DNA from: Candidatus Zixiibacteriota bacterium
GTDB taxonomy: Bacteria > Zixibacteria > MSB-5A5 > WJJR01
DNA: 17,105 bases
Reading direction: 5' to 3'
NCBI GenBank assembly: GCA_036170655.1
Contig: JAVHPP010000042.1
Span: 1-17,105 of the forward strand
Shown one piece after another: positions 1-16,771 of the stretch. Below the pieces are notes generated by a model, which did no database searches, was not told the DNA's origin, and was given only the letters and a program-made list of their open reading frames with translations. How positions within the stretch are numbered: position 1 is the first letter of the stretch; every line of letters begins with the position of its first letter. The position numbers and the translations under genes are program-made.

Positions 1-1162
1 TGGCGAGGTAGTACTCCCCGTTGCTGACCGGTCCGCCGAGATAGGCCAGGGTGAGCTTCCCCGTCTGGCGCACACGCGCGATCGCACGCCGCATCTCTTC
101 GAGGCGCGCCCAACCCAGCTTGGGACTGTCGATCGTCAAGATCACCGCCCCGATGCTGGGGTCGGACGCTGCCTTATCGAGCAGCGCCGTCCACTCGTAG
201 GTCGTTAACGGGCTGGCTCCGAACAGATGTCGGGGCGGTCTACGGTCAGGGATTTCTCCAGACAATCTCAGTTGCACGACTTCCCGGGGCATGCGCACGA
301 CCGGCTTGCGACGGGTCTCGTTCAGCCCCACATAAGCAACGCCCCCTTGGTAGCGGCCGTTGTGGCGGAAGCTGGAATGCGTGCCCGCAAAGACGTTGGC
401 GAGATTGACTCGTCCACCGATGAAAAAGTCTTTATTCCGGTCAATGTCAGCGAACGCGGTCAGGCCACTGTGGATTTCGAATGACGCACCCAGACGGTAT
501 GTTCCCGCCCACAGGTTCTGGCTCGACGTCTGGTACCAGTCGCCGCCTACCATGAGGCGCCCATCGAGGAGATTGACGGCCGCCGAATACACGTATTCAC
601 GGTCAGTACGGACACGGGACACGGGCATGCGGTTGTAGTTGTCGAGCACGACGGCCAGCGAGAACGTCTTGGTGGGTCGCCAGGTCAGTCCATACGACCA
701 GAAGTGCGACTTATTCTGGGTTGGATCATCGGACCGACGCCACTGATAGGATCCTCCGATGGCGAACGCCTGCTCCTGGTTCGTGGACATGCCAACCGAG
801 TACGCGCGCCCTTTGGGAGATCCCCCTGCCCCAAGCCACTCAACTCCGAACCCACCGCCGTGTAATGACAAATACGCGGCATCATCGCCGCTGAGGGAGG
901 AATCGGAAAAGGTATGGTAGTAATTTGCGCCGAACCCCGGATCAAACGCCAGTCCGGCCGGATTGAATCTCAGCGCACTGGGACCGTCGACCGCCGCCGC
1001 CGGCACGAATGGGAAAACGATTCGCTGCCGTGGAAAAGGCGCCGCGTCTGCCGCCGCGACACGAAAACAGATCGCGATTGTGGCTAAGATGATTACCCTG
1101 TAAAGGAGAGAGTTACTCCGTGGCTGCTTGATGCGTTGTATCTCGAAAAATCCTCCAGACAT
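1..1162 (-). CDS. sppA: Signal peptide peptidase SppA (S49, protease IV) with N-terminal beta-barrel-like extension; partial, runs off the left edge
   Basis: Absent from the ORF track because no stop lies in the window. Manual minus-strand translation from ATG 1162 (purine-rich GGACAGGGGG upstream) gives MSGGFFEIQR...VIILATIAICFRVAAADA (signal-like), FNPAGLAF, a beta-strand-rich region, then VVQLRLSGEIPD...LLDKAASDPSIGAVILTIDSPKLGWARLEEMRRAIARVRQTGKLTLAYL...NGEYYLA, which matches the N-terminal S49 domain of long-form SppA. Confidence 0.88.
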   Translation of the reverse strand, partial: MSGGFFEIQRIKQPRSNSLLYRVIILATIAICFRVAAADAAPFPRQRIVFPFVPAAAVDGPSALRFNPAGLAFDPGFGANYYHTFSDSSLSGDDAAYLSLHGGGFGVEWLGAGGSPKGRAYSVGMSTNQEQAFAIGGSYQWRRSDDPTQNKSHFWSYGLTWRPTKTFSLAVVLDNYNRMPVSRVRTDREYVYSAAVNLLDGRLMVGGDWYQTSSQNLWAGTYRLGASFEIHSGLTAFADIDRNKDFFIGGRVNLANVFAGTHSSFRHNGRYQGGVAYVGLNETRRKPVVRMPREVVQLRLSGEIPDRRPPRHLFGASPLTTYEWTALLDKAASDPSIGAVILTIDSPKLGWARLEEMRRAIARVRQTGKLTLAYLGGPVSNGEYYLA

Positions 1163-1322
1163 CACTGACCCCCTGTCCGAACCCGATCGGCAGCAATTGT
1201 CGCCACCTCGAACCGGCGACCTGTAGACTCACAATGGGAGAAACAAGAAAGACGATCAATACGCCAGTGGAAAACGACACAGCAGCAAACGATTGGGTGC
1301 CGGGATGGGGTGTGCGGGAAAG

Positions 1323-2531
1323 TTACTTTCCCCGAAGTTCGATGACGCCGGGGCCTGAAAGATCAATGTCGATCTGGCCGTTCCCGCTGCCGCAGATACC
1401 CTCCAGCCGGTCCGAGCCCAACAGGTTCTCGTGCGTCTGAATCAGCAGACCGCGCGTCCGAATGACCCCCCCCGGGCCGACCGAGAGATTCAACCGCGCC
1501 GAGAGCCGGCCGGGGACATTCACTCGAACGGGCGCGTGGCTGGTCTGAATTTCCAGACGGGCGCTGCCGAATTCGATGATGTCCGCGTCGACCGTGACAT
1601 TCTCGCCCTGCACCCGTGACGTGGAGCCAACCAGTGAGATACGGTCGAGCCGGATCGGGGCGCTCCCGGTCTGCGTGTTCACTGCGCCTACCAGGTCACT
1701 GACCGTGATGGGACCGTAAGTGTTCTCCAGTCGCGCGGGCCGCTCGGGATCGGAGACAGCGCGGCGCAAGCGCAGATCCGCGTAACTGGTCGTCACGTCG
1801 ATGACCCCTTTGACATCGCTCACTTCCATGCCGGTGTATTCACCCCGAATATCTGTCCGGCGGTCGACTCCCTGCAGCTTCACGCGTCCATATTTGGTAG
1901 TCACGCTCACGTCACGGAATGGCCCATTCAGGTCATACTCGAAATACTGCGCGTCGATATCGATATCCCACTGGGGAGGAACGGCCACTGTGAGATCCAG
2001 GGTGATGCCCCAGTCTGTCCCCTCCCACATGGCACCGGTCGGGGTCACGACATCCAGGTTCAACGCACTGCCAACCGGATGAGGGGTCACATTGATTTCC
2101 TGGAAGAGTTTGGTGGCAAGATTCTGCGAGTCGACGCGCAAGAGCTTGTTGATTTCAATGCGGACTGAGTCGGGCGGGCCTACGCTGACAATGATGTGTC
2201 CCCCCAGGTTCGAAGGACCAGACAGATGCAGTGATGACAATCCGGAGGCCGGCACTGACTGCACGATCGAGATCAGATAACGGCCCCCGCCGAGCGCTTT
2301 GATCTTGTCTGTGTCGGTGGCGCCATGTGCCGCTCCGGTCAGCAGGAATGCAGCGACGATCGCGCCGGCGTCTGGGCACGCATGCCGCAGGAGACGCGCA
2401 CACCATCTCGCAGAGGAATACCCGTTGGAACGATACGCTCGAAGATCCCCTGTCGAGCGGGGCCACGTATCACCACGGTGGCTGCGCTGGGCAGCGATTT
2501 CGTGCAGCGATGAGAGACGGAGAGGCATCAT
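1323..2531 (-). CDS. Exported DUF4097-like (putative adhesin) beta-strand repeat protein
   Basis: 402-aa ORF with a hydrophobic signal-like segment (AIVAAFLLTGAAHGA), the motif LDLTVAVPPQWDIDID, and repeated TxxG-type units (TTKYGRVKL, TTSYADLRL, NTYGPITV, QTGSAPIRL, TSHAPVRV). The true start may be downstream. Confidence 0.7.
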   Translation of the reverse strand: MMPLRLSSLHEIAAQRSHRGDTWPRSTGDLRAYRSNGYSSARWCARLLRHACPDAGAIVAAFLLTGAAHGATDTDKIKALGGGRYLISIVQSVPASGLSSLHLSGPSNLGGHIIVSVGPPDSVRIEINKLLRVDSQNLATKLFQEINVTPHPVGSALNLDVVTPTGAMWEGTDWGITLDLTVAVPPQWDIDIDAQYFEYDLNGPFRDVSVTTKYGRVKLQGVDRRTDIRGEYTGMEVSDVKGVIDVTTSYADLRLRRAVSDPERPARLENTYGPITVSDLVGAVNTQTGSAPIRLDRISLVGSTSRVQGENVTVDADIIEFGSARLEIQTSHAPVRVNVPGRLSARLNLSVGPGGVIRTRGLLIQTHENLLGSDRLEGICGSGNGQIDIDLSGPGVIELRGK

Positions 2532-2553
2532 GAAATCCGGTCGTCAGACTTGG

Positions 2554-2579
2554 TACGGCCATCCACGGTGGCGGTTGCA
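2554..2579 (-). promoter_or_regulatory. Putative ECF sigma-factor promoter TGCAAC-N16-CGTA
   Basis: Minus strand reads TGCAAC (2579-2574), a 16-nt spacer, then CGTA (2557-2554), about 22 nt upstream of the DUF4097 ATG. One mismatch to the SigW-type consensus TGAAAC-N16-CGTA. Confidence 0.5.
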
Positions 2580-2632
2580 GGAATCATGATTTATGTGGGG
2601 GCAAAAGACGATGGACAGGGCCTGCCGCCATT

Positions 2633-3544
2633 TCATACCAACAATCTTCGCTCCTCTGATATCAGCCGGTCCATGATAATCGCTCCGGCGACGGCGGCAT
2701 TGAACGATTCTACGCCACGTTGCATCGGCAGGAAGATCCGGCGAGGAGATGCTGTCTCCCACGCGCGATCAACCTGCCCGGTCTCGCTGCCGATCACCAG
2801 AGTCCAAGGTTTTGTCAAGGCGACTTCATCCAGCGGTCTGCCATTCCGGACATCCGCGATCAGCACGGTGTGGCGATGGTCACGGCACCATGCCACGAAC
2901 TCTGTCACTGCGATTCCGCAAAAAACCGGGATGTGGAAGATCGTGCCGGCAGTTGCGCGAATTGTCTTAGGATTGGTCATCTCGACCGAGTTTGGTCCGG
3001 CCAGGACCGCATCCAGGCCAAGACCGGCGGCCGTTCTGATCAGAGTCCCCAAGTTGCCCGGGTCAGCGATACGATCGCAGAACAGTAGATGCTGTGCCCG
3101 GAGAGAGGCAAGATCGGTATGCGGTCTGGGGTTCCATTGTACGATGGCTGCCACGCCGGCGCTGTGAACCGTGTCCGTGATCTGGGAGAACTCACGACGC
3201 GGTACGCGTACTGCCGACCCCACCCGCCCCAAAGCAAGGGGAGTCGACGGAATCACAGCACCAAGCGCCCGTGCCGCCGCACGGCGGCCCTCATCGTCAT
3301 CCGCTGTCAAGAGGGCTTCGATTGGACACCCGGACAGGAGCGCCTCGCTCACGAGACGAACGCCTTCAGCCACGAATTGTCCGGAGCGTTCGCGGCTCTT
3401 CTGCGTGCTCAGTTTCCGCCAGACCGCGATACGCGCGTTCGACGCAAGCGGCCACGCTGACGGATCCGTCGTGAGTGCCATAACGTTAGAAAGTGGCCGG
3501 ACCGACTGTGTCGCAAGAGATTTCACGATTCGATACTGAGTCAT
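2633..3544 (-). CDS. TrmH/SpoU-family (SPOUT) RNA 2'-O-methyltransferase
   Basis: Motifs FVAEGVRLV, DRIADPGNLGTLIRTAAGLG, NPKTIRATAG, LVIGSE and VESFNAAVAGAIIM. Alternative start at ATG 3481. Confidence 0.92.
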   Translation of the reverse strand: MTQYRIVKSLATQSVRPLSNVMALTTDPSAWPLASNARIAVWRKLSTQKSRERSGQFVAEGVRLVSEALLSGCPIEALLTADDDEGRRAAARALGAVIPSTPLALGRVGSAVRVPRREFSQITDTVHSAGVAAIVQWNPRPHTDLASLRAQHLLFCDRIADPGNLGTLIRTAAGLGLDAVLAGPNSVEMTNPKTIRATAGTIFHIPVFCGIAVTEFVAWCRDHRHTVLIADVRNGRPLDEVALTKPWTLVIGSETGQVDRAWETASPRRIFLPMQRGVESFNAAVAGAIIMDRLISEERRLLV

Positions 3545-3678
3545 TCCAAGATTCTGCTCATGATCCGGTGCGCAGCAATGACTCCTCTGTTACATCTTCC
3601 CCAAGGCGTCGAGCCTCGGCCAAGCAGTTCGATATCTCCTGTCCAGTGGCCGGTCCGATGAACCTCCCAGGAGTTGGG

Positions 3679-3801
3679 CCGAGCCAAGCCGACGAGATCA
3701 TCACGCCAGGAGAAACGGACCTGGTGCTTCTTACGCGGGAAATACTTCGAGAGCCGAGCTGGACGACACAGTATAGGTATGCCGTTCGCCGCCGCAAGCG
3801 A
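3679..3801 (+). pseudogene. C-terminal remnant of an NADH:flavin oxidoreductase (OYE, YqjM/NamA-like)
   Basis: The frame reads PSQADEIITPGETDLVLLTREILREPSWTTQYRYAVRRRK, resembling the YqjM-type C-terminus (PxQAxEII..GxADLVLLARExLRxPxW...PxQY). No upstream TIM-barrel coding sequence is present. Confidence 0.55.
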
Positions 3802-3849
3802 CGTGTCGTCCGGCCATGATCGGCCCGCCCGGACTTGGACAATAGACAA

Positions 3850-3875
3850 AAGAACTTATCACGGAAATGATCGTA
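3850..3875 (+). promoter_or_regulatory. Putative ECF sigma-factor promoter (AAGAAC-N16-CGTA) for the ABC transporter operon
   Basis: AAC at 3853-3855 (within GAACTT), a 16-nt spacer and CGTA at 3872-3875, in an AT-rich patch. An overlapping sigma70-like reading TAGACA(3843)-N17-AATGAT is also possible. Confidence 0.4.
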
Positions 3876-3937
3876 TACCACATGTGCGAAGGGCGCGGTC
3901 GACCGTGGCTGGTTGCCGTGCCCTTCGCGAGGCGCCG

Positions 3938-4042
3938 GTGAATAAGAACTCCGGCTGTTCAGCGATGAGCGTATCACTTCTCGCTCTTGGACTAATCTGG
4001 GAGTTGGCGTTTTCGCGACCTGCGGGAAGTGATACTGATTGA
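3938..4042 (+). CDS. Possible 34-aa hydrophobic small protein or gene remnant coupled to the ABC ATPase
   Basis: GAGG at 3929-3932 and GTG at 3938 give [34 protein letters not shown]. Its TGA overlaps the TTG start of the ATPase (TTGA, 4039-4042). Confidence 0.3.
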   Translation: MNKNSGCSAMSVSLLALGLIWELAFSRPAGSDTD

Positions 4043-4752
4043 GTGACGCCTGGCTGCGAACGGTTGATCTCTGTCGGCACTATCGGCGCGGGCCCCAGGA
4101 AGTGCGGGCTGTCGATGGCGTCAGCCTCTCTTTGCGGAAGGGCGAGTTCCTCGCTGTCGTGGGCGCCTCAGGATCGGGCAAGTCCACGCTTCTGAATCTG
4201 CTGGCGGGTCTTGATACTCCGACTTCGGGACAAATCGAGATCGAGGGTACCGCGCTGGGAACTCTGAACCGTCGAGAGGTGGCGGCCTATCGGGCGCGAC
4301 GAGTCGGTATGGTATTCCAATCGTTCAACCTCATCGCTCACCATACCGCCCTGCGAAACGTCGAGCTGGCGCTGTACTTCAATCACACACCTCTTCGGGA
4401 GCGGCGACACTTGGCGACCGCGATCTTGGAACAGCTGGGATTATCTGACCGCTTGGACCATCGGCCGGGCGATCTGTCTGGAGGCGAGCAGCAGCGTGTC
4501 GCCATCGCCCGGGCGCTGGTCAAGAAGCCCGATATCCTATTTGCTGATGAGCCGACCGGAAATCTCGACTTGGACAACGCGAAGCAGATCATTCAGTTGA
4601 TTGCGGATCTTAATCGGCAGGGTCTGACTGTTGTCGTGGCGACCCATGATCTGGTCATGATGCAGACGCATGCCCATCGGATTATTCGTATGAGCTATGG
4701 TCGTCTGGCTGGGGAGACGATTCTTCGTGGTGTAACCGGAGAGACATCATGA
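4039..4752 (+). CDS. ABC transporter ATP-binding protein, LolD/MacB/SalX-type
   Basis: Walker [11 protein letters not shown]-loop GMVFQSFNL, signature [15 protein letters not shown], Walker B and D-loop [13 protein letters not shown]-loop ATHD. Confidence 0.95.
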
Positions 4753-6215
4753 CGTTTCAGGATCTCCTGCATAGCTCGACCGGAAACCTGTGGCGGATGA
4801 AACTGCGTTCCTTCCTCACGATCTCTGGCGTCGTCATCGCCATAGCCGCATTTGTCTCGATGCTGTCATTCGGCGCCGGGATGCAGAGAAACGTCTCAGA
4901 GCAGTACGACAAACTGGGCCTGTTCTCGACGATGCAAGTGTATCCGCCGGACAAAAGCAAGATTGCGGATTCAATCGGCAAGGCGGCCGTTCTCGATCAG
5001 GATGCCGTAAGGGGACTGTCAGCCATTCCGGGCGTTGTGTTGGCGTATCCGTTTGATGCCTTTCCGGTGACCGTTGCCATTGCCGACACGGTGCTGGCGA
5101 CCACAGCCCAGGCGCTCCCGGAGGCAGCGGTCCAAACGAAGCTTTTTTCGCAGATGCGTGCCGGCGCCGTCTTCACCGGCGACAGTTCCGACCAGGCAGT
5201 GGTTTCGGAAGACCTGCTGGAAATCCTGCGGATCAAGGATCCCGACTCTCTTCTTGGCCAGCGTCTCGTCGTATCGGCGAAAATTGCCATTCTTGACAGC
5301 GGGATCGTTCATGTCTTCCGGGGATTGCCCGCGCATCTGCACGAACGATTCGACCAGATCCGCTGGGACTCTCTAAATAACGGAGAATACTGGTCCAGAC
5401 TTGGGCGTGAAGAGGTGACTGCTACGTTATCCCGATTCGCCGATGGGTTCCTGAATGCCCGATCGGTCGTCACCGACACACTCCGTATCAGCGGGGTCAT
5501 CGAAGGACGCACGCACGGCCGGGCCACTGTCAAATCGGTCATCATCGCTGCGGGCAGAGCGGCGCGTTTCCGTACGGGAGGCTTCAGTGATGATCCCGCC
5601 GAGCTCCTCGGGGCGTTGAGAAGTGGGACGCTGTTTGCCCCTGCGGGTGCGATGGGTGGCAAAGAGTACCCGCAAGTCACACTGAGCCTCGATCCGAATG
5701 TCGCGTACGAACCGATCCGTGATTCAGTCAAGGCCCGGGGATTCCGGACTTTCAGCTATGCCGAAGAGTTCAAAGAGATTCGGAAATTCTTTCTTTATTT
5801 CAATCTGGGGCTCAGCGTTGTCGGCCTGATCGCGCTGATCACGGCATCGCTGGGCATTGTCAACACGATGGTCATGTCGATTATCGAGCGGACACGTGAA
5901 ATCGGCGTTCTCAAGTCATTGGGCGCAGAGGATCGCGATATCCGGCTGCTGTTTCTGGCAGAATCAGGCATGATAGGAAGTATCGGAGCAACAATTGGAA
6001 TCCTGTTCGGGTGGCTGATCACCCGGGTGGCGTCGGTCATCGCACATTTGATCATGGTGCGTGAAGGGATCCCCAAGTTCGAACTGTTCGTGCTGCCGCC
6101 CTGGCTTATTCTATCTGCATTCCTGTTCGGACTTGTGGTCAGTCTCGTGGCGGGGTTGTACCCGGCCGCCCGTGCCGCCCGTGTAGATCCCGTGGAGGCT
6201 TTGCGGAATGAATGA
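4749..6215 (+). CDS. ABC transporter permease, MacB/FtsX family
   Basis: KLRSFLTISGVVIAIAAFVSM (TM1), a large periplasmic domain, GIVNTMVMSIIERTREIGVLKSLGA and C-terminal GLYPAARAARVDPVEALRNE. ATGA overlap with the ATPase. Confidence 0.95.
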   Translation: MTFQDLLHSSTGNLWRMKLRSFLTISGVVIAIAAFVSMLSFGAGMQRNVSEQYDKLGLFSTMQVYPPDKSKIADSIGKAAVLDQDAVRGLSAIPGVVLAYPFDAFPVTVAIADTVLATTAQALPEAAVQTKLFSQMRAGAVFTGDSSDQAVVSEDLLEILRIKDPDSLLGQRLVVSAKIAILDSGIVHVFRGLPAHLHERFDQIRWDSLNNGEYWSRLGREEVTATLSRFADGFLNARSVVTDTLRISGVIEGRTHGRATVKSVIIAAGRAARFRTGGFSDDPAELLGALRSGTLFAPAGAMGGKEYPQVTLSLDPNVAYEPIRDSVKARGFRTFSYAEEFKEIRKFFLYFNLGLSVVGLIALITASLGIVNTMVMSIIERTREIGVLKSLGAEDRDIRLLFLAESGMIGSIGATIGILFGWLITRVASVIAHLIMVREGIPKFELFVLPPWLILSAFLFGLVVSLVAGLYPAARAARVDPVEALRNE

Positions 6216-6446
6216 TGCCGCATTCGGTCAGGAGTACTGCCGAAAGATTGCGCGGCGTATGACAATTTGCGTGCCCGTGGGCCTGAGCCGGGTTCAGTTT
6301 CGCTTGATTGCCGCCTGCGAATCGCGTTGGTTCCGGAACCGGGACCGATCCGGCGGGAAAGTTGTTTTCGGGGCAATAGGAGTGACACATCCCGTTGGGC
6401 GGCCATAGGCTTTTTCAACGATTGAACCCGGCGGAGGCCAGTCTAT

Positions 6447-7508
6447 ATGAAGATGAAAGCGGTAGTTAAGACCAAACCTGAACCCGGGGCAATGCTGATT
6501 GAAGTCGATGTGCCTCGGATTGCGTCGGATGAGGTCCTGGTCAAGGTCAAGGCAACCTCGATCTGTGGCACTGATGTCCATATTTACCAGTGGGAACGGT
6601 GGGCGCAGAGTCGCATACCGGCTGCACATCTTCCCCAGATTCTCGGACATGAAATGGCGGGAGACATTGTGGAGGTTGGCGCCGGGGTGCGCGATTTGAA
6701 ACCGGGCGACTATGTTTCCGTCGAAACGCATATCCCTTGCGGCCACTGTCGTCAGTGTTTGAGCGGACAGAGGCACATTTGCCAGAATCTGAAGATCTTC
6801 GGCGTGGATCGCGACGGATGCTTCGCTGAGTACGTGGCAGTTCCGGGAATCGTGGTCTGGAAGAACGACTCGTCCATCCCGCTGGAGTACGCGGCAGTGC
6901 AGGAACCGCTCGGCAATGCGGTTTACTGCACATTGGTGGAGCCGGTAGCGGGGAAGACGGTACTGATCTTTGGCGACGGTCCGATTGCACTGCTCGCGGT
7001 CGGTGTCGCACGGGTCAGCGGCGCCGCACGGATCGTTCTGGCCGGGATGGAGCCGGCGCGCCTGGAAATCGCGCGTCGCATGGGCGCTGATGAAGTCATC
7101 AATGTTCTGCAAAACGATACCGTGTCCGTCATCCTCGACCGCACTGGTGGCGTGGGCATGGATGTCGTGCTCGAGATGGCCGGAGCGCAGAAGGCGATTG
7201 AGCAGTCGTTCAAGTGTGTGCGCAAGGGGGGGCGAATCTCCGCCTTCGGCATTCCCTCCGGTCCAGTCCAGTTGGACTGGAACAATGGCGTTGTCTTCCG
7301 GGGCGTGACGCTCTACGGGATCAATGGCCGCCTGATGTTCGACACGTGGATCACTGTTCGCAACCTGCTCGCCTCGAAGCGCCTCGACATTTCACCGGTC
7401 GTGACCCACAAGTTGCCGCTGGCAGACTATGAGAAGGGGTTCGACTTGATGATTACGTCACCCAAGACTTCGGGCAAGGTCGTGCTCTTCCCGCACGGTG
7501 TCAGCTAA
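6447..7508 (+). CDS. tdh: L-threonine 3-dehydrogenase (Zn-dependent MDR family)
   Basis: TSICGTDVHIY, LGHE, VSVETHIPCGHCRQC..HIC (structural Zn), GVDRDGCFAEY, EPLGNAV, LEMAG, GINGRLMFDTW and SGKVVL. GGAGG RBS, and kbl lies in the same operon. Confidence 0.9.
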   Translation: MKMKAVVKTKPEPGAMLIEVDVPRIASDEVLVKVKATSICGTDVHIYQWERWAQSRIPAAHLPQILGHEMAGDIVEVGAGVRDLKPGDYVSVETHIPCGHCRQCLSGQRHICQNLKIFGVDRDGCFAEYVAVPGIVVWKNDSSIPLEYAAVQEPLGNAVYCTLVEPVAGKTVLIFGDGPIALLAVGVARVSGAARIVLAGMEPARLEIARRMGADEVINVLQNDTVSVILDRTGGVGMDVVLEMAGAQKAIEQSFKCVRKGGRISAFGIPSGPVQLDWNNGVVFRGVTLYGINGRLMFDTWITVRNLLASKRLDISPVVTHKLPLADYEKGFDLMITSPKTSGKVVLFPHGVS

Positions 7509-7517
7509 ACAGCGGCG

Positions 7518-7931
7518 ATGATCATCGGTGTGGGGAACGACATCGTCGAGGTCACGCGGATGCGGCATGAACTCGACACGGCAGGTGTTGCGTTCCGGGA
7601 TCAGGTGTTTTCCCCGGCGGAAATCACGTATTGTGAGGAGAAACGTTATCCGGCACGCCACTATGCAGCACGATTTGCGGCCAAGGAGGCCTTTTTCAAG
7701 GCGCTGGGCACCGGACGGGGTAACGGTCTTGGTTGGCGGGATGCGGTGGTGTGTCACGATGCCCAGGGGAAACCAGGCCTGGTTCTCTCTGGCGAGGCGT
7801 TGCGGCTGTCGCGGGAACGGGGGATCAATCGCGTGTTCCTTTCTCTCTCGCATACTGCCGAACTGGCCATGGCCAGTGTGATTCTGGAAGGCGAACCAGC
7901 GCCAATGACCAATGAGGTTCCACCTGAGTAA
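7518..7931 (+). CDS. acpS: Holo-[acyl-carrier-protein] synthase (AcpS-type 4'-phosphopantetheinyl transferase)
   Basis: MIIGVGNDIVEV, YAARFAAKEAFFKALGTG, GKP and LSLSH motifs; 137 aa. Confidence 0.93.
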   Translation: MIIGVGNDIVEVTRMRHELDTAGVAFRDQVFSPAEITYCEEKRYPARHYAARFAAKEAFFKALGTGRGNGLGWRDAVVCHDAQGKPGLVLSGEALRLSRERGINRVFLSLSHTAELAMASVILEGEPAPMTNEVPPE

Positions 7932-8021
7932 GATGAGATCCGGAAAAGACGGGCCGCGCAGGGCCGGCGGCTCGGCGCACGCATGGGTGCACGATTCGAT
8001 CTGATCGCGAAGGAGAATGTC

Positions 8022-8273
8022 GTGGAGAATCTCAAGCAGTCTGTTTTGGATTATGTTCGCAAAGAGTATTTGGAGGAGGGTGACGATCGCGAACTGACGG
8101 TAGACACCCCACTCATTACCGGCGGGATTGTGGACTCGTTCTCGATGGTTTCCCTGAAGCGTTTTCTGGAGAAGACCTACAGCATCCACATCCCTGATGC
8201 CGAGGCCACCCCCCAAGCGTTCGACACGGTCACACGTATCGCGGCTCTGGTCGAGCGATTCCAGAAACGGTAG
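8022..8273 (+). CDS. Acyl/aminoacyl carrier protein (phosphopantetheine-binding)
   Basis: Probable GTG start at 8022 behind AAGGAG (the track starts at 7983). 83 aa with DTPLITGGIVDSFSMVSL (Ppant Ser at 8136-8138) and IPDAEATPQAFDTVTRIAALV. Confidence 0.88.
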   Translation: MENLKQSVLDYVRKEYLEEGDDRELTVDTPLITGGIVDSFSMVSLKRFLEKTYSIHIPDAEATPQAFDTVTRIAALVERFQKR

Positions 8274-8317
8274 GAGACGAGCCATCAGCAGTAGTTATTC
8301 TGCGATAGGAGGGAGAC

Positions 8318-9565
8318 ATGACGTACAGCGAAGCAACACGCGCATGGTATCAGAAGGAACTGAAGGCGATCCATGACGCAGGCCTGTTCAAAGAAGAGCG
8401 TAGCATTCATGCCCCCCAAGGCGCGGAGATTGAAGTGGAGTACCCCGCGGGGGCTCCGGTCAGAACGGTCATTAATATGTGCGCGAACAACTACCTCGGA
8501 TTATCGAGTCATCCGGACGTGGTGGAGGCCGCGCATCGCGGGCTGGACCATCGCGGTTACGGGATGTCATCCGTGCGATTCATCTGCGGGACACAGGACA
8601 TTCACCGCGAATTGGAGCGCCAACTGACTGCGTTCCTTGGGACCGAAGACACGCTGTTGTTTCCCTCCTGCATGGATGCAAACGCGGGTGTGTTCGAAGC
8701 CATCCTGGGCGAACAGGATGTGATCATCGCCGACCGGCTGGTGCACGCATCATTGATCGACGGGATGCGTTTGTGCAAGGCGATGCAGGACACTTACAAG
8801 CACTCTGACATGGCCCACCTGGAGGAGAAGCTCCAGGAGCATCAGGACAAACGCGTCCGTATGATTGTCACCGATGGTGTCTTCTCCATGGATGGGGACC
8901 TGGCGCCGCTGGAACGGATCGTGGCCCTGGCGGAGTCGCACGATGCCATGGTGCTGGTGGATGACTCGCATGCGACGGGATTCATCGGGAAGACAGGACG
9001 CGGGACGCACGAGCATTACGGGGTCATGGGCCGCGTCGATGTCATCACGACCACACTCGGGAAGGCCTTGGGCGGCGCCTCCGGCGGCTGTGTCAGCGGG
9101 CGGCGCGAGCTGGTGGAGATGTGCCGTCAACGGGCGCGGCCGTATCTGTTCTCAAATACAGTTGCCCCAGTCATCGTCGCCGGGGCCTTGAAAGTTCTTG
9201 ATCTGATTTCACGGACGACCGAACGCCGTGACAAATTGGAGCAGAACACGCGCTATTGGCGCCAGTTGCTCACCGAAGCAGGCTTCGACATCAAGCCGGG
9301 CGAGAGTCCGATTGTGCCGGTGATGCTGTACAATGCCAAACTGGCGCAGGATGTGGCGCGCGACCTCTTTGCCGAAGGCATCTACGCGGTCGGGTTCTTT
9401 TTCCCCGTGGTGGCCAAAGGGCAGGCGCGGATTCGCACACAGTTGTCCGCCGCCCACGAGAAACATCATCTGGACACTGCCCTGGCGGCGTTTGTGAAGG
9501 TCGGAAAGAAGTATGACATTCTGGGCAAGGGGAAGAAGGAGATCATCGAGCGCTACGGGGTTTAG
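8318..9565 (+). CDS. kbl: Glycine C-acetyltransferase / 2-amino-3-ketobutyrate ligase (PLP alpha-oxoamine synthase family)
   Basis: CANNYLGL, Kbl-type GMSSVRFICGTQDIH, HASLIDG, TDGVFSMDGD, DDSHATG, PLP-Lys motif TLGKALGG, RQRARPYLFSN and ARIRTQLSAAH. GGAGG RBS. Confidence 0.93.
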   Translation: MTYSEATRAWYQKELKAIHDAGLFKEERSIHAPQGAEIEVEYPAGAPVRTVINMCANNYLGLSSHPDVVEAAHRGLDHRGYGMSSVRFICGTQDIHRELERQLTAFLGTEDTLLFPSCMDANAGVFEAILGEQDVIIADRLVHASLIDGMRLCKAMQDTYKHSDMAHLEEKLQEHQDKRVRMIVTDGVFSMDGDLAPLERIVALAESHDAMVLVDDSHATGFIGKTGRGTHEHYGVMGRVDVITTTLGKALGGASGGCVSGRRELVEMCRQRARPYLFSNTVAPVIVAGALKVLDLISRTTERRDKLEQNTRYWRQLLTEAGFDIKPGESPIVPVMLYNAKLAQDVARDLFAEGIYAVGFFFPVVAKGQARIRTQLSAAHEKHHLDTALAAFVKVGKKYDILGKGKKEIIERYGV

Positions 9566-9590
9566 CGAGCTGCTAAAAGAACGGACAAAC

Positions 9591-9623
9591 TATCATTCTG
9601 GGGAGCGGAGCGACGAAGAATCT
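9591..9623 (+). repeat. Single degenerate copy of a REP-like intergenic repeat (TGTCATTCTGAG...GCGAAGAATCT type)
   Basis: TATCATTCTGGGGAGCGGAGCGACGAAGAATCT with internal ATTCT/AGAAT pairing. It resembles a recalled family of dispersed intergenic palindromic repeats, but only one copy occurs in the window. Confidence 0.5.
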
Positions 9624-9689
9624 GCTTTCTGACAGAGGGCGCGCTACGCCTGATGAGGCGAATTCGAGAGAGAGGAAGAAGGGAATGCC

Positions 9690-10421
9690 ATGAGCCGGCT
9701 GCCTCTTCGTAAGGTGATCATCGCGATAACCGCGGTCGGCGGCGTGATGGCGCTTCTCATTTGGGGGTTTGTCGAGGGTCGCAAGGAGGCCGCTCTGGAA
9801 CGCGAACGTGAACAGCCAGTCGCCCCGCCGTTGCGCGTTTCGCTAACGGACGGACAAGTCGTCGTGACCGTTGACAAGGAGACGCGTGAACGCGGAGGTC
9901 TGGAGCTGGGGGCTCTGATGGCGGTCACGTTCCACCCGCGGACACGGGCCTATGCAGCGGTCGTCAACCTCGATCCACTGGCGTAACTGCAGGCGAACAT
10001 CCGAAAGATGCAAGCTGGTTTCTCCGCATCGCAGCAGGAGTATGAACCATCACGCGCCCTGTACGATCTGGCCCGAATCGTTTCCGACAGGGATCTCGTC
10101 TCCGCCGAAGTCGCATGGCACAAGGATGAAGCTGATCTCCGTGCTCTGCAGATCGCGGCGCAACAGGAGTGAGGTGACACAATCGCGGCGTGGCTAATGG
10201 GAGGTAACAGAACACTCGAGAACTTGTTCGCTGGAAGGGAGTCTCTGGTTCGCGTCAGTCTCCCGGGAGGAGTGCCGTTCCCTTCTCCATCTAAGACTGC
10301 CGATGTGCAGGTCAGTGACTCGGTGGTTGTCTCGGCGCGGTTCCTCTCTGCTGCGCGAAAGAGCAATCCCCGCCTCCAAAGTGTCGATCTCCTCTATTTT
10401 GCAGAGATCCCACCACTGTTT
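9690..10421 (+). pseudogene. Decayed RND periplasmic adaptor (membrane fusion protein, CzcB/CusB-like)
   Basis: One continuous frame from ATG 9690 (N-terminal TM helix, then a helical region) is interrupted by TAA at 9984-9986 and TGA at 10170-10172 (QQE*GDTIAAWL, probably TGG>TGA). It continues in frame into the 10197 ORF (LVRVSLP...NPRLQ) and is truncated at about 10400-10425. Confidence 0.75.
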
Positions 10422-11495
10422 TGCGTCGTCGGCAGCGATTTGGACTCTCTCGATCGCAAAGCTCCGGAGATCGCCCGAACGCTCTCCGACATACCCGGGG
10501 CAACGGAAATCCAGGTTCAATCACCTGTCGGCACGCCCCAACTGGCCGTTCGGCTCCGTTCAGACGACCTCGCGCGCTGGGGACTCAGCCCTGTCAATGT
10601 GCTCGAGACTGTCCGCATGGCCTTTCAAGGTGAGGTTGTGAGTCAGGTGTACGAGGACAACCGCGTGGTTGATGTGTCGGTCATTCTCGATCCTTCGGAG
10701 AGGCGGACCGTCGAACAGGTCGGAGCGTTGCCGTTGCGGAACAGCGCCGGGAATTATGTCTCCCTCCGACAGGTCGCTGATATCTATGTGACATCCGGGC
10801 GTTATGTGGTCCTGCACCAAGGCGCCCGGAGAGTGCAAACGGTGACCTGCAACGTCGCCGGGCGGGACGTCAATTCCTTCGTGGCGGAGGCACAGCGAAG
10901 AATCAAGCAAGCCGTGAACCTGCCTGCGGGGATGTATGTGGAATTCTCCGGTGCGGCGGAAGCGCAAACGCGCTCGCGGCAAGAGCTGGTCACTCATTCC
11001 TTGCTCGCCGGCGCTGGAATCATCCTGCTTCTATCTGTCGTCTTTGGTCGCGCGCGCAATCTTCTGCTTGTGCTCGTCAATTTGCCGTTCGCCTTGGTGG
11101 GCGGCATCCTGGCCGTGTTCGCTTCGGGTGGCTGGCTGACACTGGGGTCGATGGTCGGATTCGTAACTCTCTTCGGCATTACTCTCCGCAACTCGATCAT
11201 GATGATCTCACATTACGATCACCTGGTCAATGTTGATGGCATGGCGTGGGATCAGGACACGGCGATCCGTGGCGCTGCCGAACGCCTGACGCCGATCCTC
11301 ATGACCGCTCTCGTTACCGCTCTCGGTCTGTTGCCGCTCGCGATTGGGAGCCGTGCGCCGGGACGCGAGATCGAAGGCCCTCTCGCCATCGTGATCCTCG
11401 GCGGGCTCACCACATCGACGCTGTTGAATCTCCTTGTGCTTCCGACCCTGGCGCTCCGGTTCGGCCGGTTCGGTGGCAAAACGGACCGCCCTTGA
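10422..11495 (+). pseudogene. C-terminal ~360 aa of a CusA/CzcA-family heavy-metal RND permease (5' two-thirds deleted)
   Basis: GSDLDSLDRKA, VTCNVAGRDV, LVNLPFALVGG, GSMVGFVTLFGITLRNSIMMISH, ERLTPILMTALVTALGLLPLA and GREIEGPLAIVILGGLTTSTLLNLLVLP. Full-length members are about 1030-1050 aa. Confidence 0.85.
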
Positions 11496-11658
11496 GTTTG
11501 CGAAGACCAACGCCTGGTTATCGTGCAGCTTGTGACGAACAGGCGGCGATTCTGGCAACGAGCCGTCAGAGTCAAAGAGTACACGTGGGGAAGGGCAGCA
11601 TCGGGTTCGTGTTGGGGAAACGCCTCTGATGGTCCATGGTCAATTCCTCACGCTTACC

Positions 11659-13077
11659 TCAGAACTTTCGATTGTACTCCGCTTCGATCTGCTGTGCCGA
11701 GATCGACTCATCGAGGTAGTGGTTCTTGTCAGTTCCCATCCAACGTGGGTTCGGGTGGCGTCGCGTGATGCGATGGATATTCAGCAGATGACGAACAGTA
11801 ATGTTGTCGGTCGTCGTGTTGTGGGCCCCGGCGCCACAACTGAGCGTGAACGAGGGATGGAGGGCGTTGTTCATGCCGCCGAGCGCGCCGAATGTTGACG
11901 GCATATTGACAAGAATACGGCTTGCATCGACGGCACGGGAGAAGCGCGCGATTTCCTCATCGCGGTCCGAATAGATAACGGCGGTGTGCCCGACCCCGCC
12001 AAAGCGGGTGATTTCGGCGCAACGCTGGATTGCGGCATCGGCATTGGCTTCCACGTAGAAGGCGAGGATCGGGGCGAGGATTTCCGCCGAGAGCGTGGTA
12101 TCGGGCCCGACGGTGTCGAGCCGCGCCACGAGCAGTTTGCTGTCCGAAGGCACGCTGATGCCGGCGCTCTCGGCGATCCGGTGCACGGACTGGCCAACAA
12201 CGGTGGCGCGCATGACCCGCTGCTCGCGGTCATAAGCCACACGCCCAACCTTCTCGATTTCATCGGGAGAAAGAAAGTAAACCCCCTGCCTCGTGAACTC
12301 GGCAATGACCGGACGGGCTGTTTCCTGCCCGACCACGACGGCTTGTTCGCTGGCGCAGACCGTCCCGTTGTCGAACGTTTTTGACGCGATGATCGATGCC
12401 ACCGCGAAGGGCACATCCGCCGTGGGTCCGATATACACCGGGACATTCCCCGGGCCGACGCCGATGGTGGGTGTGCCCGACCGGGACGCCTTGCGCACCA
12501 CCGAACTGGTCCCGGTCGCGAGAATCAAAGACAAGTGGTGGTCGGACATGATGTCGTTGATTGTCTCCGACGATGTTTTCTCGAGACATTGAATGCAGTC
12601 CTCCGGTGCTCCCGCCTGTACAGCCACCTGATAGCAGATCGCAGCGGCGGCGGCAGTGCAATGACGCGCCGCGCCCGGTGGGCTGATGATCAGAGGGTTG
12701 CGCGTCTTCATTGCGATCAGGATTTTGAAAATCGTCGTCGCGGTGGGATTGGTCACGGGGATGAAGGCCAGGATCGGGCCGATGGACTGGGCCACTTCCA
12801 CAATGCCATTGCCAGCATTGTCGGACACGACACCGACCGTCCTCAGATTCTTGATGTCCTCATAGACCAGTTGGGTGGCAATGACGTTTTTCACGACCTT
12901 GTCCTGCCAGACCCCGAGTCCGGTTTCTTCGTGCGCCATCCGAGCCAACTCGACCCGGTGGTCCAGCGCGGCCAGATAGACGGCGCGCACAACCGCGTCA
13001 GTCTGCTTCTGGTCGAGGGCCCGAAAGGCGGCAGCGGCGGCGGATGCCCTGCGAATGATCTCCTGTGCGCGTGACAT
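11659..13077 (-). CDS. CoA-acylating aldehyde (acetaldehyde) dehydrogenase, stand-alone AdhE-type ALDH domain
   Basis: ETGLGVWQDKVVKN, IPVTNPTATTIFKILIAMKTRN, ILATG, IGVGPGN, catalytic SKTFDNGTVCASEQ, GHTAVIYS and PSFTLSCG. 472 aa with no Fe-ADH domain. Confidence 0.9.
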   Translation of the reverse strand: MSRAQEIIRRASAAAAAFRALDQKQTDAVVRAVYLAALDHRVELARMAHEETGLGVWQDKVVKNVIATQLVYEDIKNLRTVGVVSDNAGNGIVEVAQSIGPILAFIPVTNPTATTIFKILIAMKTRNPLIISPPGAARHCTAAAAAICYQVAVQAGAPEDCIQCLEKTSSETINDIMSDHHLSLILATGTSSVVRKASRSGTPTIGVGPGNVPVYIGPTADVPFAVASIIASKTFDNGTVCASEQAVVVGQETARPVIAEFTRQGVYFLSPDEIEKVGRVAYDREQRVMRATVVGQSVHRIAESAGISVPSDSKLLVARLDTVGPDTTLSAEILAPILAFYVEANADAAIQRCAEITRFGGVGHTAVIYSDRDEEIARFSRAVDASRILVNMPSTFGALGGMNNALHPSFTLSCGAGAHNTTTDNITVRHLLNIHRITRRHPNPRWMGTDKNHYLDESISAQQIEAEYNRKF

Positions 13078-13318
13078 AGGATTTCAGGCGGCTGACCTGC
13101 GAAGGCCGGCAGACGCGGACAGGAATTTACTCCACGCGGGGTGCAGCATCAAGCGGCTTTCCCCGGGATATGCGCAGTGGGTTCTGTCAAGCAAGACGAG
13201 AAGTGATTCCGCCCCGTGGCTTCGCGGCGTAGAGTGTTTGGGGGGGAGAGCGGCGACGGATTTACCGGGAACAAAAACGCCGGATCGAAGCCCCGCGTTT
13301 CGTGAGAAATCACATGCG

Positions 13319-14554
13319 ATGAGAATCCCCGACGATGAGCAGGTCCGCTGGCTGTATCTGGACCTCAACTCCTACTTTGCCTCGGTCGAGCAGCAGATCA
13401 ATCCCAAACTGCGCGGCCAGCCGGTGGGTGTTGTGCCGTTGCTGGCGGGGAACCCCTGCTGTATTGCGGCCAGCCGCGAAGCCAAGGTGTTCGGAGTGAA
13501 AACAGGCACCTCGATGGTGGATGCGCGGCGGCTGTGCCCGGGGATTCGCATTGTCGAAGCGCGGCCGCAACGGTATGTGGAATACCATCACCAGATCATC
13601 GCAGCCGTCGAGTCGTGCATCCCGGTCACGGGCATTCATTCCATTGACGAGATGGCCTGCCGCTTGAGTGGTCCGGAACGGGATCCGGCCGTGTCACTGC
13701 GACTCACGCACAAGATCAAGGAGACGGTCCGTGATATAGTGGGAGTGGTATTAACATCCTCGATCGGCTTGGCGCCGAACCGGTGGCTGGCCAAGGTCGC
13801 CACCGACATGCAGAAACCGGATGGGCTGGTTGTGATTCGCCGCCGCGACCTGCCGCAAATCCTCTACTCTCTTGCCCCCATCGATCTTCCCGGCATCGGC
13901 CCGCGGATGAACAAACGTCTCGAGGTACGCGGAATTACGACTGTGCAACGTCTCTGCGAACTGACCGAAAAGGAGATGTCACATCTGTGGGGCGGAATCA
14001 CCGGCCGGCGCTTCTGGCACTGGCTGCAGGGACACGACATCCCCGACGTGGTGACCCGCCGGAGTTCCCTCGGGCATTCGCATGTGCTGGGGCCCGAGGT
14101 GCGCAGCGAAGCGGGCGCTTACGGTGTGCTGCAACGACTGCTTTCCAAAGCGGCTGCGCGCCTGCGCCATGGTAATCTTTGGGCAACCGGCATGATCGTG
14201 TTTGTGAAGTGTTACAGCGGCCGCTCCTGGGAATCGAAAGCGTCATTTCAGGAGTGCCAGGACACATTGACGCTCTTGGAGACGCTGCGGATGCTGTGGC
14301 AGGAACGCCCATCGTTCGAACGCGCCACTCCGCAGATGGTTGGCGTGAGCTTCGTGGGGTTGGTCGCTGACGAGCGGCACAATCTGTCGCTGTTCGGCAG
14401 CGAACGACGCGAGGCGCTGTCCCGGGCGATGGACCGCGTCAACGCCCGGTACGGCCGCGATGCGCTCTACTTCGGCGGCATCCACGACTTCAAAACCACC
14501 GCCCCGACCCGCATCGGCTTCACCAGCATCCCCGAAGAGTGCGACTGGGCATGA
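13319..14554 (+). CDS. dinB: Y-family DNA polymerase IV (DinB-like)
   Basis: Probable ATG at 13319 (the track's 13055 start overlaps the ALDH gene). Motifs YLDLNSYFASVE, IAASREAKVFGVKTG, SIDE (catalytic acids intact), LAKVATDMQKPDG, LPGIG and a UmuC/DinB-like tail AMDRVNARYG. Confidence 0.88.
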   Translation: MRIPDDEQVRWLYLDLNSYFASVEQQINPKLRGQPVGVVPLLAGNPCCIAASREAKVFGVKTGTSMVDARRLCPGIRIVEARPQRYVEYHHQIIAAVESCIPVTGIHSIDEMACRLSGPERDPAVSLRLTHKIKETVRDIVGVVLTSSIGLAPNRWLAKVATDMQKPDGLVVIRRRDLPQILYSLAPIDLPGIGPRMNKRLEVRGITTVQRLCELTEKEMSHLWGGITGRRFWHWLQGHDIPDVVTRRSSLGHSHVLGPEVRSEAGAYGVLQRLLSKAAARLRHGNLWATGMIVFVKCYSGRSWESKASFQECQDTLTLLETLRMLWQERPSFERATPQMVGVSFVGLVADERHNLSLFGSERREALSRAMDRVNARYGRDALYFGGIHDFKTTAPTRIGFTSIPEECDWA

Positions 14555-14600
14555 GGGTCGCGGCTTGATTCCCGCAGAATCGTGCCGGAGCTGCTCACGG

Positions 14601-14669
14601 GCAGGGGCGGATTCAAACCTGCCCTGCTGAGACCTGAAATACAGAGGGCGGGTCTGAGACCCGCCCCAC
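14601..14669. repeat. Pair of REP-like GC-rich hairpins between convergent dinB and msrAB; possible bidirectional terminator
   Basis: GCAGGGGCGGATTCAAACCTGCCCTGC (14601-14627, imperfect stem) and GGGCGGGTCT-G-AGACCCGCCC (14646-14666, perfect 10-bp inverted repeat). Both resemble GTAGGGGCGGG...CCCGCCCCTAC REP units. Confidence 0.65.
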
Positions 14670-14706
14670 TATAGATCATAGTTTCCGACTTCGATGATGC
14701 TGGCTA

Positions 14707-15672
14707 TCAGAAGCGTTTCTGGTACGCGTGACAGTACGGCTGACTGCCGGTATGTTCGTAGTAATCCTGGTGATACTTCTCCGCTTCCCAGAATGTCTCT
14801 GCCTTGGAGAGCTGGGTGACAACGTCGTATCCTTTGTCCTTGAGAATACGAATCAGGCGTTCGGCGGTCTGTCGCTGATCATCGTTGGTATAGAAAACGG
14901 CTGAGCGGTACTGATCTCCGATGTCGGGTCCCTGGCGGTTGATCTCCGTCGGGTCGTGGATTTCAAAGAACAAGCGCGCTAGTTTCTCGAAGGTTATCTT
15001 CGATGGATTAAACTGGATTTCAACCGTCTCCGCATGGCCGGTGCCGTGGGCACAGACATCCTGATAGGTGGGATTCTTTGTGTGGCCGCCCATGTACCCC
15101 ACCCGCGTCCCGATGACCCCATCAGTCTTCTTCAGCATGTATTCCGTTCCCCAAAAACAGCCGCCCGCGAAGTAGGCTTTCTCTGTCTTCACTGTCGTTT
15201 CCGGGTCTGCGGCAACGAAGTTCAGCGAGATCGAATTGACGCAGTGACGCACGTTCCTGGGCGTGAGATGCTCACCGGCAAACACGTGTCCCAGATGCGC
15301 GCCGCAGCGCGCGCAGGTAATCTCCGTGCGGAGGCCATCCGCATCGACCGTGCGCCTGACCGCGCCGGGGATTTCATCGTCGAAACTGGGCCATCCGCAC
15401 TCGGAGTCGAACTTGTCGGAGGACCGATACAAGGAAGCGCCGCATTGCTTGCACGTGTAAGTGCCCTTCTCGTGGGAATTGGTGAACTTGCCGGTGAACG
15501 GCGGTTCGGTTCCCTTGTGGAGGATCACACGTTGTTCCTCCGGTGTCAGCCTATTGAGTGTCACGGTACTCTCCTCCGAACGTATTGTCAACGCCATGAC
15601 AACCACACCACAGACTACGGCCACCGCCATCGGAATGAAGAATCGCCATCGGAAACTTCTCCGCTTGAACAT
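14707..15672 (-). CDS. msrAB: Bifunctional methionine sulfoxide reductase MsrB-MsrA with N-terminal signal/anchor
   Basis: Probable ATG at 15672 (the track's 16134 start overlaps the methyltransferase). MsrB motifs GTEPPF, CKQC, KFDSECGWPSF, CARCGAHLGHVF and RHCVNS; MsrA motifs AGGCFWG, TGHAE, HDPT and AEKYHQDY. Confidence 0.95.
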   Translation of the reverse strand: MFKRRSFRWRFFIPMAVAVVCGVVVMALTIRSEESTVTLNRLTPEEQRVILHKGTEPPFTGKFTNSHEKGTYTCKQCGASLYRSSDKFDSECGWPSFDDEIPGAVRRTVDADGLRTEITCARCGAHLGHVFAGEHLTPRNVRHCVNSISLNFVAADPETTVKTEKAYFAGGCFWGTEYMLKKTDGVIGTRVGYMGGHTKNPTYQDVCAHGTGHAETVEIQFNPSKITFEKLARLFFEIHDPTEINRQGPDIGDQYRSAVFYTNDDQRQTAERLIRILKDKGYDVVTQLSKAETFWEAEKYHQDYYEHTGSQPYCHAYQKRF

Positions 15673-15737
15673 CAAGTGTTCGCCCCTTTCCAGCCTACTC
15701 AACTCCCCAGTCTGATGCAAGTGCCTTTCGCTCTCAC

Positions 15738-15766
15738 TTAGACGCGCGCGGGCGTCGAATTGTTCC
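15738..15766 (-). promoter_or_regulatory. Putative ECF sigma-factor promoter GGAAC-N17-CGTCTAA upstream of msrAB
   Basis: Minus strand GGAAC (15766-15762), a 17-nt spacer and CGTCTAA (15744-15738), about 65 nt upstream of the msrAB ATG. Confidence 0.5.
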
Positions 15767-15924
15767 CGGAGCCGGCGACCTTGGAGGCCCCGTTGTTGGC
15801 CAATCCGGTCGAAAGACAAGATCCGCTTCCCTCCTTGATTGCCGGCTTTCACATTGCTTTCTTTCGGTGGCGGCCTGACGGTTCGCCCGCCCGGGACCAA
15901 GCCAAGCATATACGGATCGCTCCG

Positions 15925-16740: not shown

Positions 16741-16771
16741 GCGTCATCCACGCTGGAGGGCCGGAGGAACC

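Follow-up and report, generated by a model that had tools for sequence, protein, structure and literature searches.

The window analysed here is a stretch of 17,105 nucleotides (nt), positions 1 to 17,105 of the forward strand of contig JAVHPP010000042.1, from the genome of a Candidatus Zixiibacteriota bacterium (assembly GCA_036170655.1; 2.6 Mb, 100% complete). It carries four adjacent genes, for an L-threonine 3-dehydrogenase (Tdh), a phosphopantetheinyl transferase (AcpS), a small carrier protein and a glycine C-acetyltransferase (Kbl), which together form a deletion derivative of a five-gene module found in many bacterial phyla, and the Kbl of which likely uses the carrier in place of coenzyme A (CoA). 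The features on which the argument turns are, by position in the window:

6447-7508, plus strand: tdh, Zn-dependent L-threonine 3-dehydrogenase (432 bits with NF003808, cut-off 380)
7518-7931, plus strand: acpS, AcpS-type phosphopantetheinyl transferase (86.6 with TIGR00516, cut-off 59.8)
7925-8004, plus strand: spacer marking where the ligase was deleted, perhaps a degraded scar of it (from alignment with the relatives G001, G002, G003 and G010)
8022-8273, plus strand: carrier protein of 83 amino acids, of the stand-alone peptidyl carrier protein (PCP)/DltC type (from its nearest solved chains and cross-phylum identity)
8318-9565, plus strand: kbl, glycine C-acetyltransferase of a carrier-linked clade (591 with TIGR01822, cut-off 493)
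11659-13077, minus strand: acylating aldehyde dehydrogenase, EutE/AdhE-N-like, a candidate associated part (456 with TIGR02518, below the cut-off of 620)

A preliminary description of the window had reported four closely spaced, co-oriented genes, and the coordinates of the open reading frames (ORFs) bear this out, with gaps of 9 nt between tdh and acpS, 90 nt between acpS and the carrier gene and 44 nt between the carrier gene and kbl. Tdh scores slightly below the cut-off of a second NCBIfam model (TIGR00692, 444.6 bits against 458) and is the sole strong Zn-type match in a search of the genome, in which no Tdh of the short-chain dehydrogenase/reductase (SDR) type was found. AcpS, which also exceeds the cut-off of NF000832 (108.6 against 107), is an extra copy beside the housekeeping acpS, being 40% identical to the other acpS of the genome, on contig C180. 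Because that second acpS and a housekeeping AcpP-FabF locus are encoded elsewhere in the genome, the carrier of the window is likewise an extra one. Kbl also lies above the cut-off of NF005394 (585.5 against 460) and is the only enzyme of the Kbl clade found in the genome, its sole other paralog being 35% identical.

The carrier gene starts with GTG, 6 nt after an AAGGAG. Its product has a putative phosphopantetheine serine, Ser39 in the motif GIVDS39FS, that is invariant in 41 of 41 aligned carriers, and a basic helix II (SLKRFLEK). No Pfam family matches it; the best NCBIfam match is the OlsHI-associated acyl carrier protein (ACP) of ornithine-lipid synthesis (NF052616, 69 bits, below the cut-off of 130), and the score with the DltC model is lower still (NF003464, 26.6 bits against 68). 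The nearest solved chains are the stand-alone peptidyl or D-alanyl carriers 6cxt_A, 2my5, PigG, PltL and DltC, and the match to AcpP of the same genome is a local one of 25 residues only. Across many phyla the carrier is 66–78% identical.

The linkage of carrier and kbl, which the preliminary description had seen in this one stretch, is kept in other genomes, where an additional partner, an acetate ligase, accompanies it. A GTDB search with the carrier yielded 117 confirmed stretches, of which the best 80 were taken (66–78% identity to the carrier of the window); the records come from Acidobacteriota, Fibrobacterota, Zixiibacteriota, KSB1, Calditrichota, Gemmatimonadota, Eisenbacteria, Myxococcales and others. 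Kbl is encoded directly after the carrier in all 80 loci, acpS lies near it in 68 and a ligase of about 566 residues lies upstream in 77, giving the order (tdh)-acpS-acetate ligase-carrier-kbl; four of five ligases tested score above the acetate-CoA ligase model NF003313. A Zn-type tdh is close by in 3 of the 80 loci only, and an SDR-type tdh in 2 further ones. Among 80 metagenomic loci, kbl follows the carrier in 70 of the 70 that have at least 400 nt of downstream DNA, and of the 66 with sufficient upstream sequence 62 have the ligase before it; among the four that do not, one locus extends only 740 nt upstream. Carrier and Kbl are adjacent in 20 of 20 loci of relatives examined. The carrier is present, at 57% identity or more, in 23 of the 61 genomes of the window's class, and the 22 module genomes other than that of the window all possess the module ligase (68–100% identity). 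The GTDB, metagenome and class sets overlap slightly and include kin, so that their counts are not independent; the linkage of carrier and kbl is nevertheless far beyond chance. In the full-text literature searched we found no paper that joins Tdh/Kbl to a carrier module, although subscription papers and supplements, which lie outside that coverage, could hold a description; the pathway is apparently undescribed. A plasmid collection held no close carrier (best 39.5% identity).

The fixed core of the module is the pair of carrier and Kbl, since such pairs exist without an adjacent ligase (L067, L076, L080, L218, L241 and L242); in the genomes of the three of these loci that have one, the module ligase was not found (best matches 28–39%, genome completeness not given). 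Two of these layouts are distinctive. In L080 (6487-9535) the order is threonine synthase-carrier-kbl, and in L067 (6290-9521) it is canonical kbl-acpS-carrier-kbl, an arrangement that could shift acetyl between CoA and the carrier via ketobutyrate; Tdh was found in neither genome. Of the 80 GTDB loci, 42 encode, close to kbl, a protein of about 101 amino acids without a Pfam family (for example L023, 9535-9840), directly downstream where inspected; many copies end in a CP motif, and it was not found in the genome of the window. Bacterial microcompartment shell genes flank the module in several relatives (L117, 2519-3046; L058, 8086-8754; L001, 2-1862), joined in L001 by an RnfC/PduS-like gene and an ACT-domain gene. 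A microcompartment role was considered and rejected, as shell genes were not found in the window's genome, in G001-G003 or in G011, and are common in genomes without the module.

The preliminary description treated the four genes as a unit. Three relatives of the same genus have the five-gene order tdh-acpS-ligase-carrier-kbl, and the 90-nt gap of the window is the site at which these relatives encode the acetate ligase of about 566 amino acids; the ligase was lost between acpS and the carrier gene. Relocation of the ligase was rejected, a search of the genome having returned matches of only 25–38% identity, the highest (about 38%) over short stretches; the two AMP-binding enzymes of the genome are one FadD-like protein and one MenE. 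Misassembly was also rejected, since single contigs from each of three runs, X1 (which may be the one this DNA came from), X2 (7719-9800) and X5 (6443-9800), cross the junction without a gap. X5 comes from an independent study, and its contig, from a strain about 1% diverged, differs at 38 positions over 3.36 kb; a further run, X3, has a hole at the junction and is uninformative. No RNA data set was among the listed holders of this DNA. The spacer aligns to both the start and the end of the ligase gene, with a start-like TGAGTAAG followed in frame by K-x-R-S-G-K, as in the last motif of the ligase. At the protein level this likeness is borderline (P 0.05–0.07 against the last 40 residues of the ligase, 0.34–0.39 against the whole), and a scar at the DNA level was rejected as not significant (P 0.03–0.39 over five relatives, with inner parts of the gene scoring higher). 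An ORF of 23 codons (7933-8004, plus strand) lies in the frame of the possible scar and begins 1 nt past the acpS stop; its three listed strain differences are all at synonymous third positions, which has a chance of about 1 in 27 and was noted post hoc. At position 7944 the contig of X1 also differs from the window.

The preliminary description had suggested that the Kbl of the window uses the co-encoded holo-ACP instead of CoA. Linkage, clade membership, a changed CoA-adenosine pocket and a weakly passing complex prediction make this likely, as far as sequences and models go. In a quick maximum-likelihood tree of 62 sequences (40 of 90 carrier-linked Kbl, all 20 canonical Kbl and 2 long-branched outgroups), the carrier-linked enzymes occupy a single branch with a stem of 0.59 and a Shimodaira-Hasegawa-like approximate likelihood ratio (SH-aLRT) support of 100. 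As the sequences were labelled by at least 65% identity together with adjacency to a carrier, their monophyly is partly built in, but the long stem is not, and the separate carrier-linked clade that the preliminary description envisaged does exist. The enzyme of the window is 54% identical to E. coli Kbl, and the best fold match of its model is CnKBL (7bxp; TM-score 0.86–0.87 to the Kbl structures 7bxp and 1fc4); the single-chain model is mediocre (pLDDT 75.9) and was used for the fold search only.

The substrate side of the active site is that of a Kbl. The equivalents of N50, V79, H136, S185, H213, K244, L272, F273 and R368 are invariant in 90 of 90 carrier-linked enzymes, and the window's enzyme has the pyridoxal phosphate (PLP) lysine and every residue of the substrate cavity (N57, V86, H143, S190, H218, K249, L277, F278 and R373). 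The roles of these residues, which are named for CnKBL, are taken from PMC9814548, and V79, L272 and F273 were transferred by us from its CnKBL numbering. Their invariance argues for chemistry on glycine and a two-carbon (C2) unit. The side facing CoA differs. Lys156 of R. capsulatus 5-aminolevulinate synthase (ALAS) contacts the ribose of CoA (PMC4615937); in an alignment free of gaps, and with its register checked, this residue corresponds to Arg150 of E. coli Kbl and to Gln157 in the window. At this position of the CoA-adenosine pocket 20 of 20 canonical Kbls have Arg or Lys, as against 2 of 90 carrier-linked ones; Asp follows it in 86 of the 90, and the five-residue pocket stretch is net negative in 84 of the 90 and zero or positive in all 20 canonical enzymes. 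A charge match between this negative stretch and the basic helix II of the carrier is plausible. Further differences from canonical Kbl are the replacement of F112 by M or L and of N135 by V near the tunnel (90 of 90), extra residues inserted near positions 41-45 and a basic extension of the C-terminus in most members. For a Kbl dimer modelled together with the carrier, the complex prediction gave 0.49, the best of three controls reaching 0.00; at least 86% of the contacts are shared between runs, and the partner has a pLDDT of at least 83. This is a weak pass: the mark is attained by 116 of the 157 solved pairs and by 2 of the 215 mismatched ones, but at scores of 0.60 or less by only 18 of the 157 and by both of the mismatches.

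On these grounds we propose, with a probability of about 0.5, that in this ligase-less derivative Kbl transfers acetyl from 2-amino-3-ketobutyrate to a private carrier bearing phosphopantetheine, instead of to CoA, most likely in threonine breakdown. Gene content, linkage, the clade, the residue changes and the loss of the ligase are observed; the use of the carrier, the direction and the exit route are proposed. AcpS would arm Ser39 of the carrier with phosphopantetheine, Tdh would oxidise threonine to 2-amino-3-ketobutyrate, and Kbl would cleave the latter to glycine and acetyl-carrier, the simplest flow given that Tdh is present and the ATP-driven loader is gone. The AcsA-type ligase of relatives would link acetyl-carrier reversibly to acetate and ATP; in intact modules it could either charge the carrier, in the manner of AasR, or work in the ATP-forming direction, as reported for an AMP-forming Acs in Syntrophus (PMC4992975); module genomes that lack Tdh favour loading.

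In the window's genome, the deletion of the ligase suggests that acetyl leaves the carrier by another route. Acylating aldehyde dehydrogenases form an acyl-enzyme thioester, and the enzyme at 11659-13077 could therefore bridge carrier and CoA, passing acetyl through its acyl-enzyme to CoA; an ADP-forming ligase-type enzyme might then yield acetate and ATP, with glycine cleavage taking up the glycine. The genome encodes the P protein of glycine cleavage, a tryptophanase and an ORF of the ADP-forming ligase type, and a search of it found no acetate kinase and identified no loader or unloader of the carrier. The aldehyde dehydrogenase gene lies 2 kb downstream of kbl and scores below all family cut-offs; it occurs in 10 of the 61 genomes of the class, all of them module-bearing (10 of 23 against 0 of 38), and adjoins the module in G006, G009, G012 and G010. 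It is our best candidate, but the exit of acetyl is the weakest step of the mechanism, because searches of G061 and G062, two further genomes that lack the ligase, did not find the enzyme and because it is rare in a wider set of genomes, being present in 3 of 50 at 55% identity or more.

Several further observations weigh against the proposal, as does the presence of the aldehyde dehydrogenase in only 10 of the 23 module genomes of the class. The pocket lysine of ALAS accepts Thr, Ser, Asn, His and other residues in a complementation screen (PMC4615937), and Gln157 is therefore compatible with the use of CoA. For BioF and ACP a crosslinked structure has already been solved (8dle), so that the weak pass of the complex prediction may reflect structures known to the predictor. 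Of the 50 module genomes in the wider set, only 20 yielded a Tdh, whether Zn- or SDR-type (completeness not given), which would suit the condensing direction for the core module. Homoserine dehydrogenase was not found in the window's genome, and its absence would make threonine synthesis useful. Finally, the carrier gene has only one listed strain difference, which would fit selection on it since the deletion but falls short of demonstrating it.

The last point bears on an alternative that we regard as unlikely, namely that the locus is a decaying remnant in which Kbl, after the loss of the ligase, uses free CoA as in an ordinary Tdh-Kbl pair, with acpS and the carrier vestigial. The failure to identify a loader or unloader of the carrier in the genome and the activity retained by ALAS variants at the pocket lysine would both fit this, as would the substitution G23R in acpS, one of only two listed strain differences in that gene, and K51T at a conserved column of the carrier. 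Among the differences listed, those in the four genes comprise 21 synonymous and 2 non-synonymous changes (kbl 8:0, tdh 11:1, acpS 1:1, carrier 1:0), and this pattern shows selection on kbl and tdh after the ligase was lost. The acpS and carrier frames are intact in the strain about 1% diverged from another study, which speaks against a remnant. The carrier keeps 35 of 37 conserved columns, one of the two deviations being merely the GTG start, and its non-synonymous divergence (dN) from relatives (0.11–0.19) is inside the range among relatives, while the spacer is barely recognisable. Nor has the Kbl pocket reverted, the enzyme deviating at 3 of 239 conserved columns (median 3.5), and other ligase-less loci keep the carrier too.

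The link of the module to threonine, which the preliminary description had proposed, is strong in the window's class and optional elsewhere. All 23 module genomes of the class have a Tdh: 17 the Zn-type and the other 6, directly upstream of the module, an unrelated enzyme that we take to be an SDR-type Tdh from its place beside canonical kbl and its motif, Pfam giving the epimerase family only. Tdh of either type is also present in 26 of the 38 class genomes without the module. In the window's family it occurs in 9 of 9 module genomes and was not found in 6 others (one of them 80% complete and with a partial carrier-linked kbl), and canonical Kbl was found in 4 of the 23 class module genomes and is not shown in the other 19. 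The link does not extend to every module genome, as the 20 of 50 elsewhere indicate; that set was hand-picked across taxa from the 80 GTDB genomes, with three loci known to carry tdh left out.

Somewhat less probable again than a remnant is a biosynthetic direction, in which acetyl-carrier, loaded from acetyl-CoA or acetaldehyde by a substitute enzyme, would be condensed with glycine and the product reduced by Tdh to threonine. In its favour, homoserine dehydrogenase was found in only 1 of the 23 class module genomes and not in that of the window. In the 30 of 50 wider module genomes that show no Tdh, Kbl would have to condense, the AasR-AcpR-SPT system runs in that direction (PMC9386255), and in L080 a threonine synthase gene precedes the carrier-kbl pair. 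Against this, the obvious loader is the very gene that was lost. Homoserine dehydrogenase is also missing from 32 of the 38 class genomes without the module, so that its absence says little. A ThrC-like gene, present in 9 of the 23 module genomes and in about 21 of the other 38, is not clearly complementary to the module either; neither profile was informative on direction, and both were rejected as tests of it.

It is improbable that acetyl-carrier made from threonine donates its acetyl to an enzyme elsewhere, for example a membrane acyltransferase of the Dlt kind, or that the main activity of Kbl is that of a threonine aldolase whose product goes to the aldehyde dehydrogenase. The DltC/PCP type of the carrier, the co-distribution of the aldehyde dehydrogenase with the module in the class and the aldolase activity of CnKBL at low CoA (PMC9814548) point that way; yet neither an MBOAT protein (PF03062) nor a microcompartment shell gene was found in the genome, an aldolase requires neither Tdh nor carrier, and the aldolase rates given in that paper are low (kcat <0.1). 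The preliminary description's variant in which a longer acyl-ACP is condensed with glycine to a longer beta-hydroxy amino acid or sphingoid-like lipid precursor is unsupported and very improbable: its best points are the ornithine-lipid ACP as nearest (sub-threshold) carrier model, the lipids made by the nearest known system (PMC9386255) and the tunnel replacements at F112 and N135, whereas the Kbl cavity, V79 included, is invariant, models of serine palmitoyltransferase (SPT) score far below their cut-offs, the partner ligase is of the acetate type and no recurrent lipid or fab gene was recognised by eye among the neighbour clusters of 100 loci.

Around the four genes, a broken-looking insertion (9690-11495, plus strand) separates kbl from the aldehyde dehydrogenase gene, the two being adjacent in G010; it holds an ORF of 98 amino acids, without an NCBIfam match, that resembles the beginning of an efflux membrane-fusion protein, and after it a CusA/CzcA-type RND permease of which just the C-terminal part is present. 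Elsewhere the window encodes a DinB-like polymerase IV below cut-offs (13322-14554, plus strand), a fused MsrB/MsrA (14707-15900, minus strand) and an incomplete SppA-like protein with a long N-terminal region (2-1165, minus strand). Outside it, the second alpha-oxoamine synthase of the genome (contig C49, 9106-10170; L152), the enzyme 35% identical to Kbl, adjoins a gene of the NAD-dependent epimerase family and is possibly lipid-related, and contig C5 carries a type III polyketide synthase-like gene with a weak DpgA match (L164, 1495-2649).

If Kbl does pass acetyl to the carrier, a reaction taught as CoA chemistry would use a dedicated protein arm across a wide range of uncultured bacteria, and metabolic models would assign the wrong function to genes annotated as ordinary acetyl-CoA synthetase and Kbl, inferences of acetate use included. 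From the ligase-less copy it is clear that the carrier goes with Kbl and not with the ligase; the copy also indicates another means of loading or unloading the carrier and, as a minimal four-gene set, is a natural test case for the pathway and its direction. A bolder generalisation, which we hold as doubtful, is that a private protein-bound acetyl pool, insulated from CoA, runs a central amino-acid pathway in many uncultured phyla, with carrier and Kbl as the core and interchangeable end enzymes (two unrelated Tdh; an acetate-carrier ligase or, here, an acylating aldehyde dehydrogenase as carrier-to-CoA bridge).

Three known systems are close to the module. The Tdh-Kbl pathway (E. coli kbl-tdh, NC_000913.3 b3616-b3617; CnKBL 7bxp, EcKBL 1fc4) has the same two enzymes, fold and active site, but the window has a dedicated AcpS and carrier between the two genes, and a Kbl of a separate clade with an altered CoA-adenosine pocket. 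DltC, PigG, PltL, the 6cxt carrier and the OlsHI-associated ACP (NF052616) belong to the same sequence family as the carrier of the window, which nevertheless scores below all family cut-offs and has different partner enzymes; those of the OlsHI-associated ACP are OlsH and OlsI (PMC12971839), and the MBOAT partner is not found in this genome. The AasR/AcpR/SPT system of Caulobacter and other Rhodobacteria (PMC9386255) likewise pairs an alpha-oxoamine synthase with its own carrier and, as in the relatives of the module, with its own adenylating ligase of a kind that annotation pipelines call CoA ligase. It joins a long-chain acyl group to serine, whereas the module would handle a C2 unit and glycine; helix II of AcpR is acidic, whereas that of the PCP/DltC-type module carrier is basic; and the module is tied to Tdh and, in the window's genome, lacks the ligase. 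The module appears to work like AasR-AcpR-SPT yet not to be a member, since Kbl falls below the SPT cut-offs (NF047600, 327 against 640; NF047599, 279 against 500; NF047603, 227 against 670) and no cognate acyl-carrier synthetase was found in the genome, whose AMP-binding enzymes are FadD-like and MenE. We view the module as a putative new form of a known design, applied to central C2 and amino-acid chemistry.

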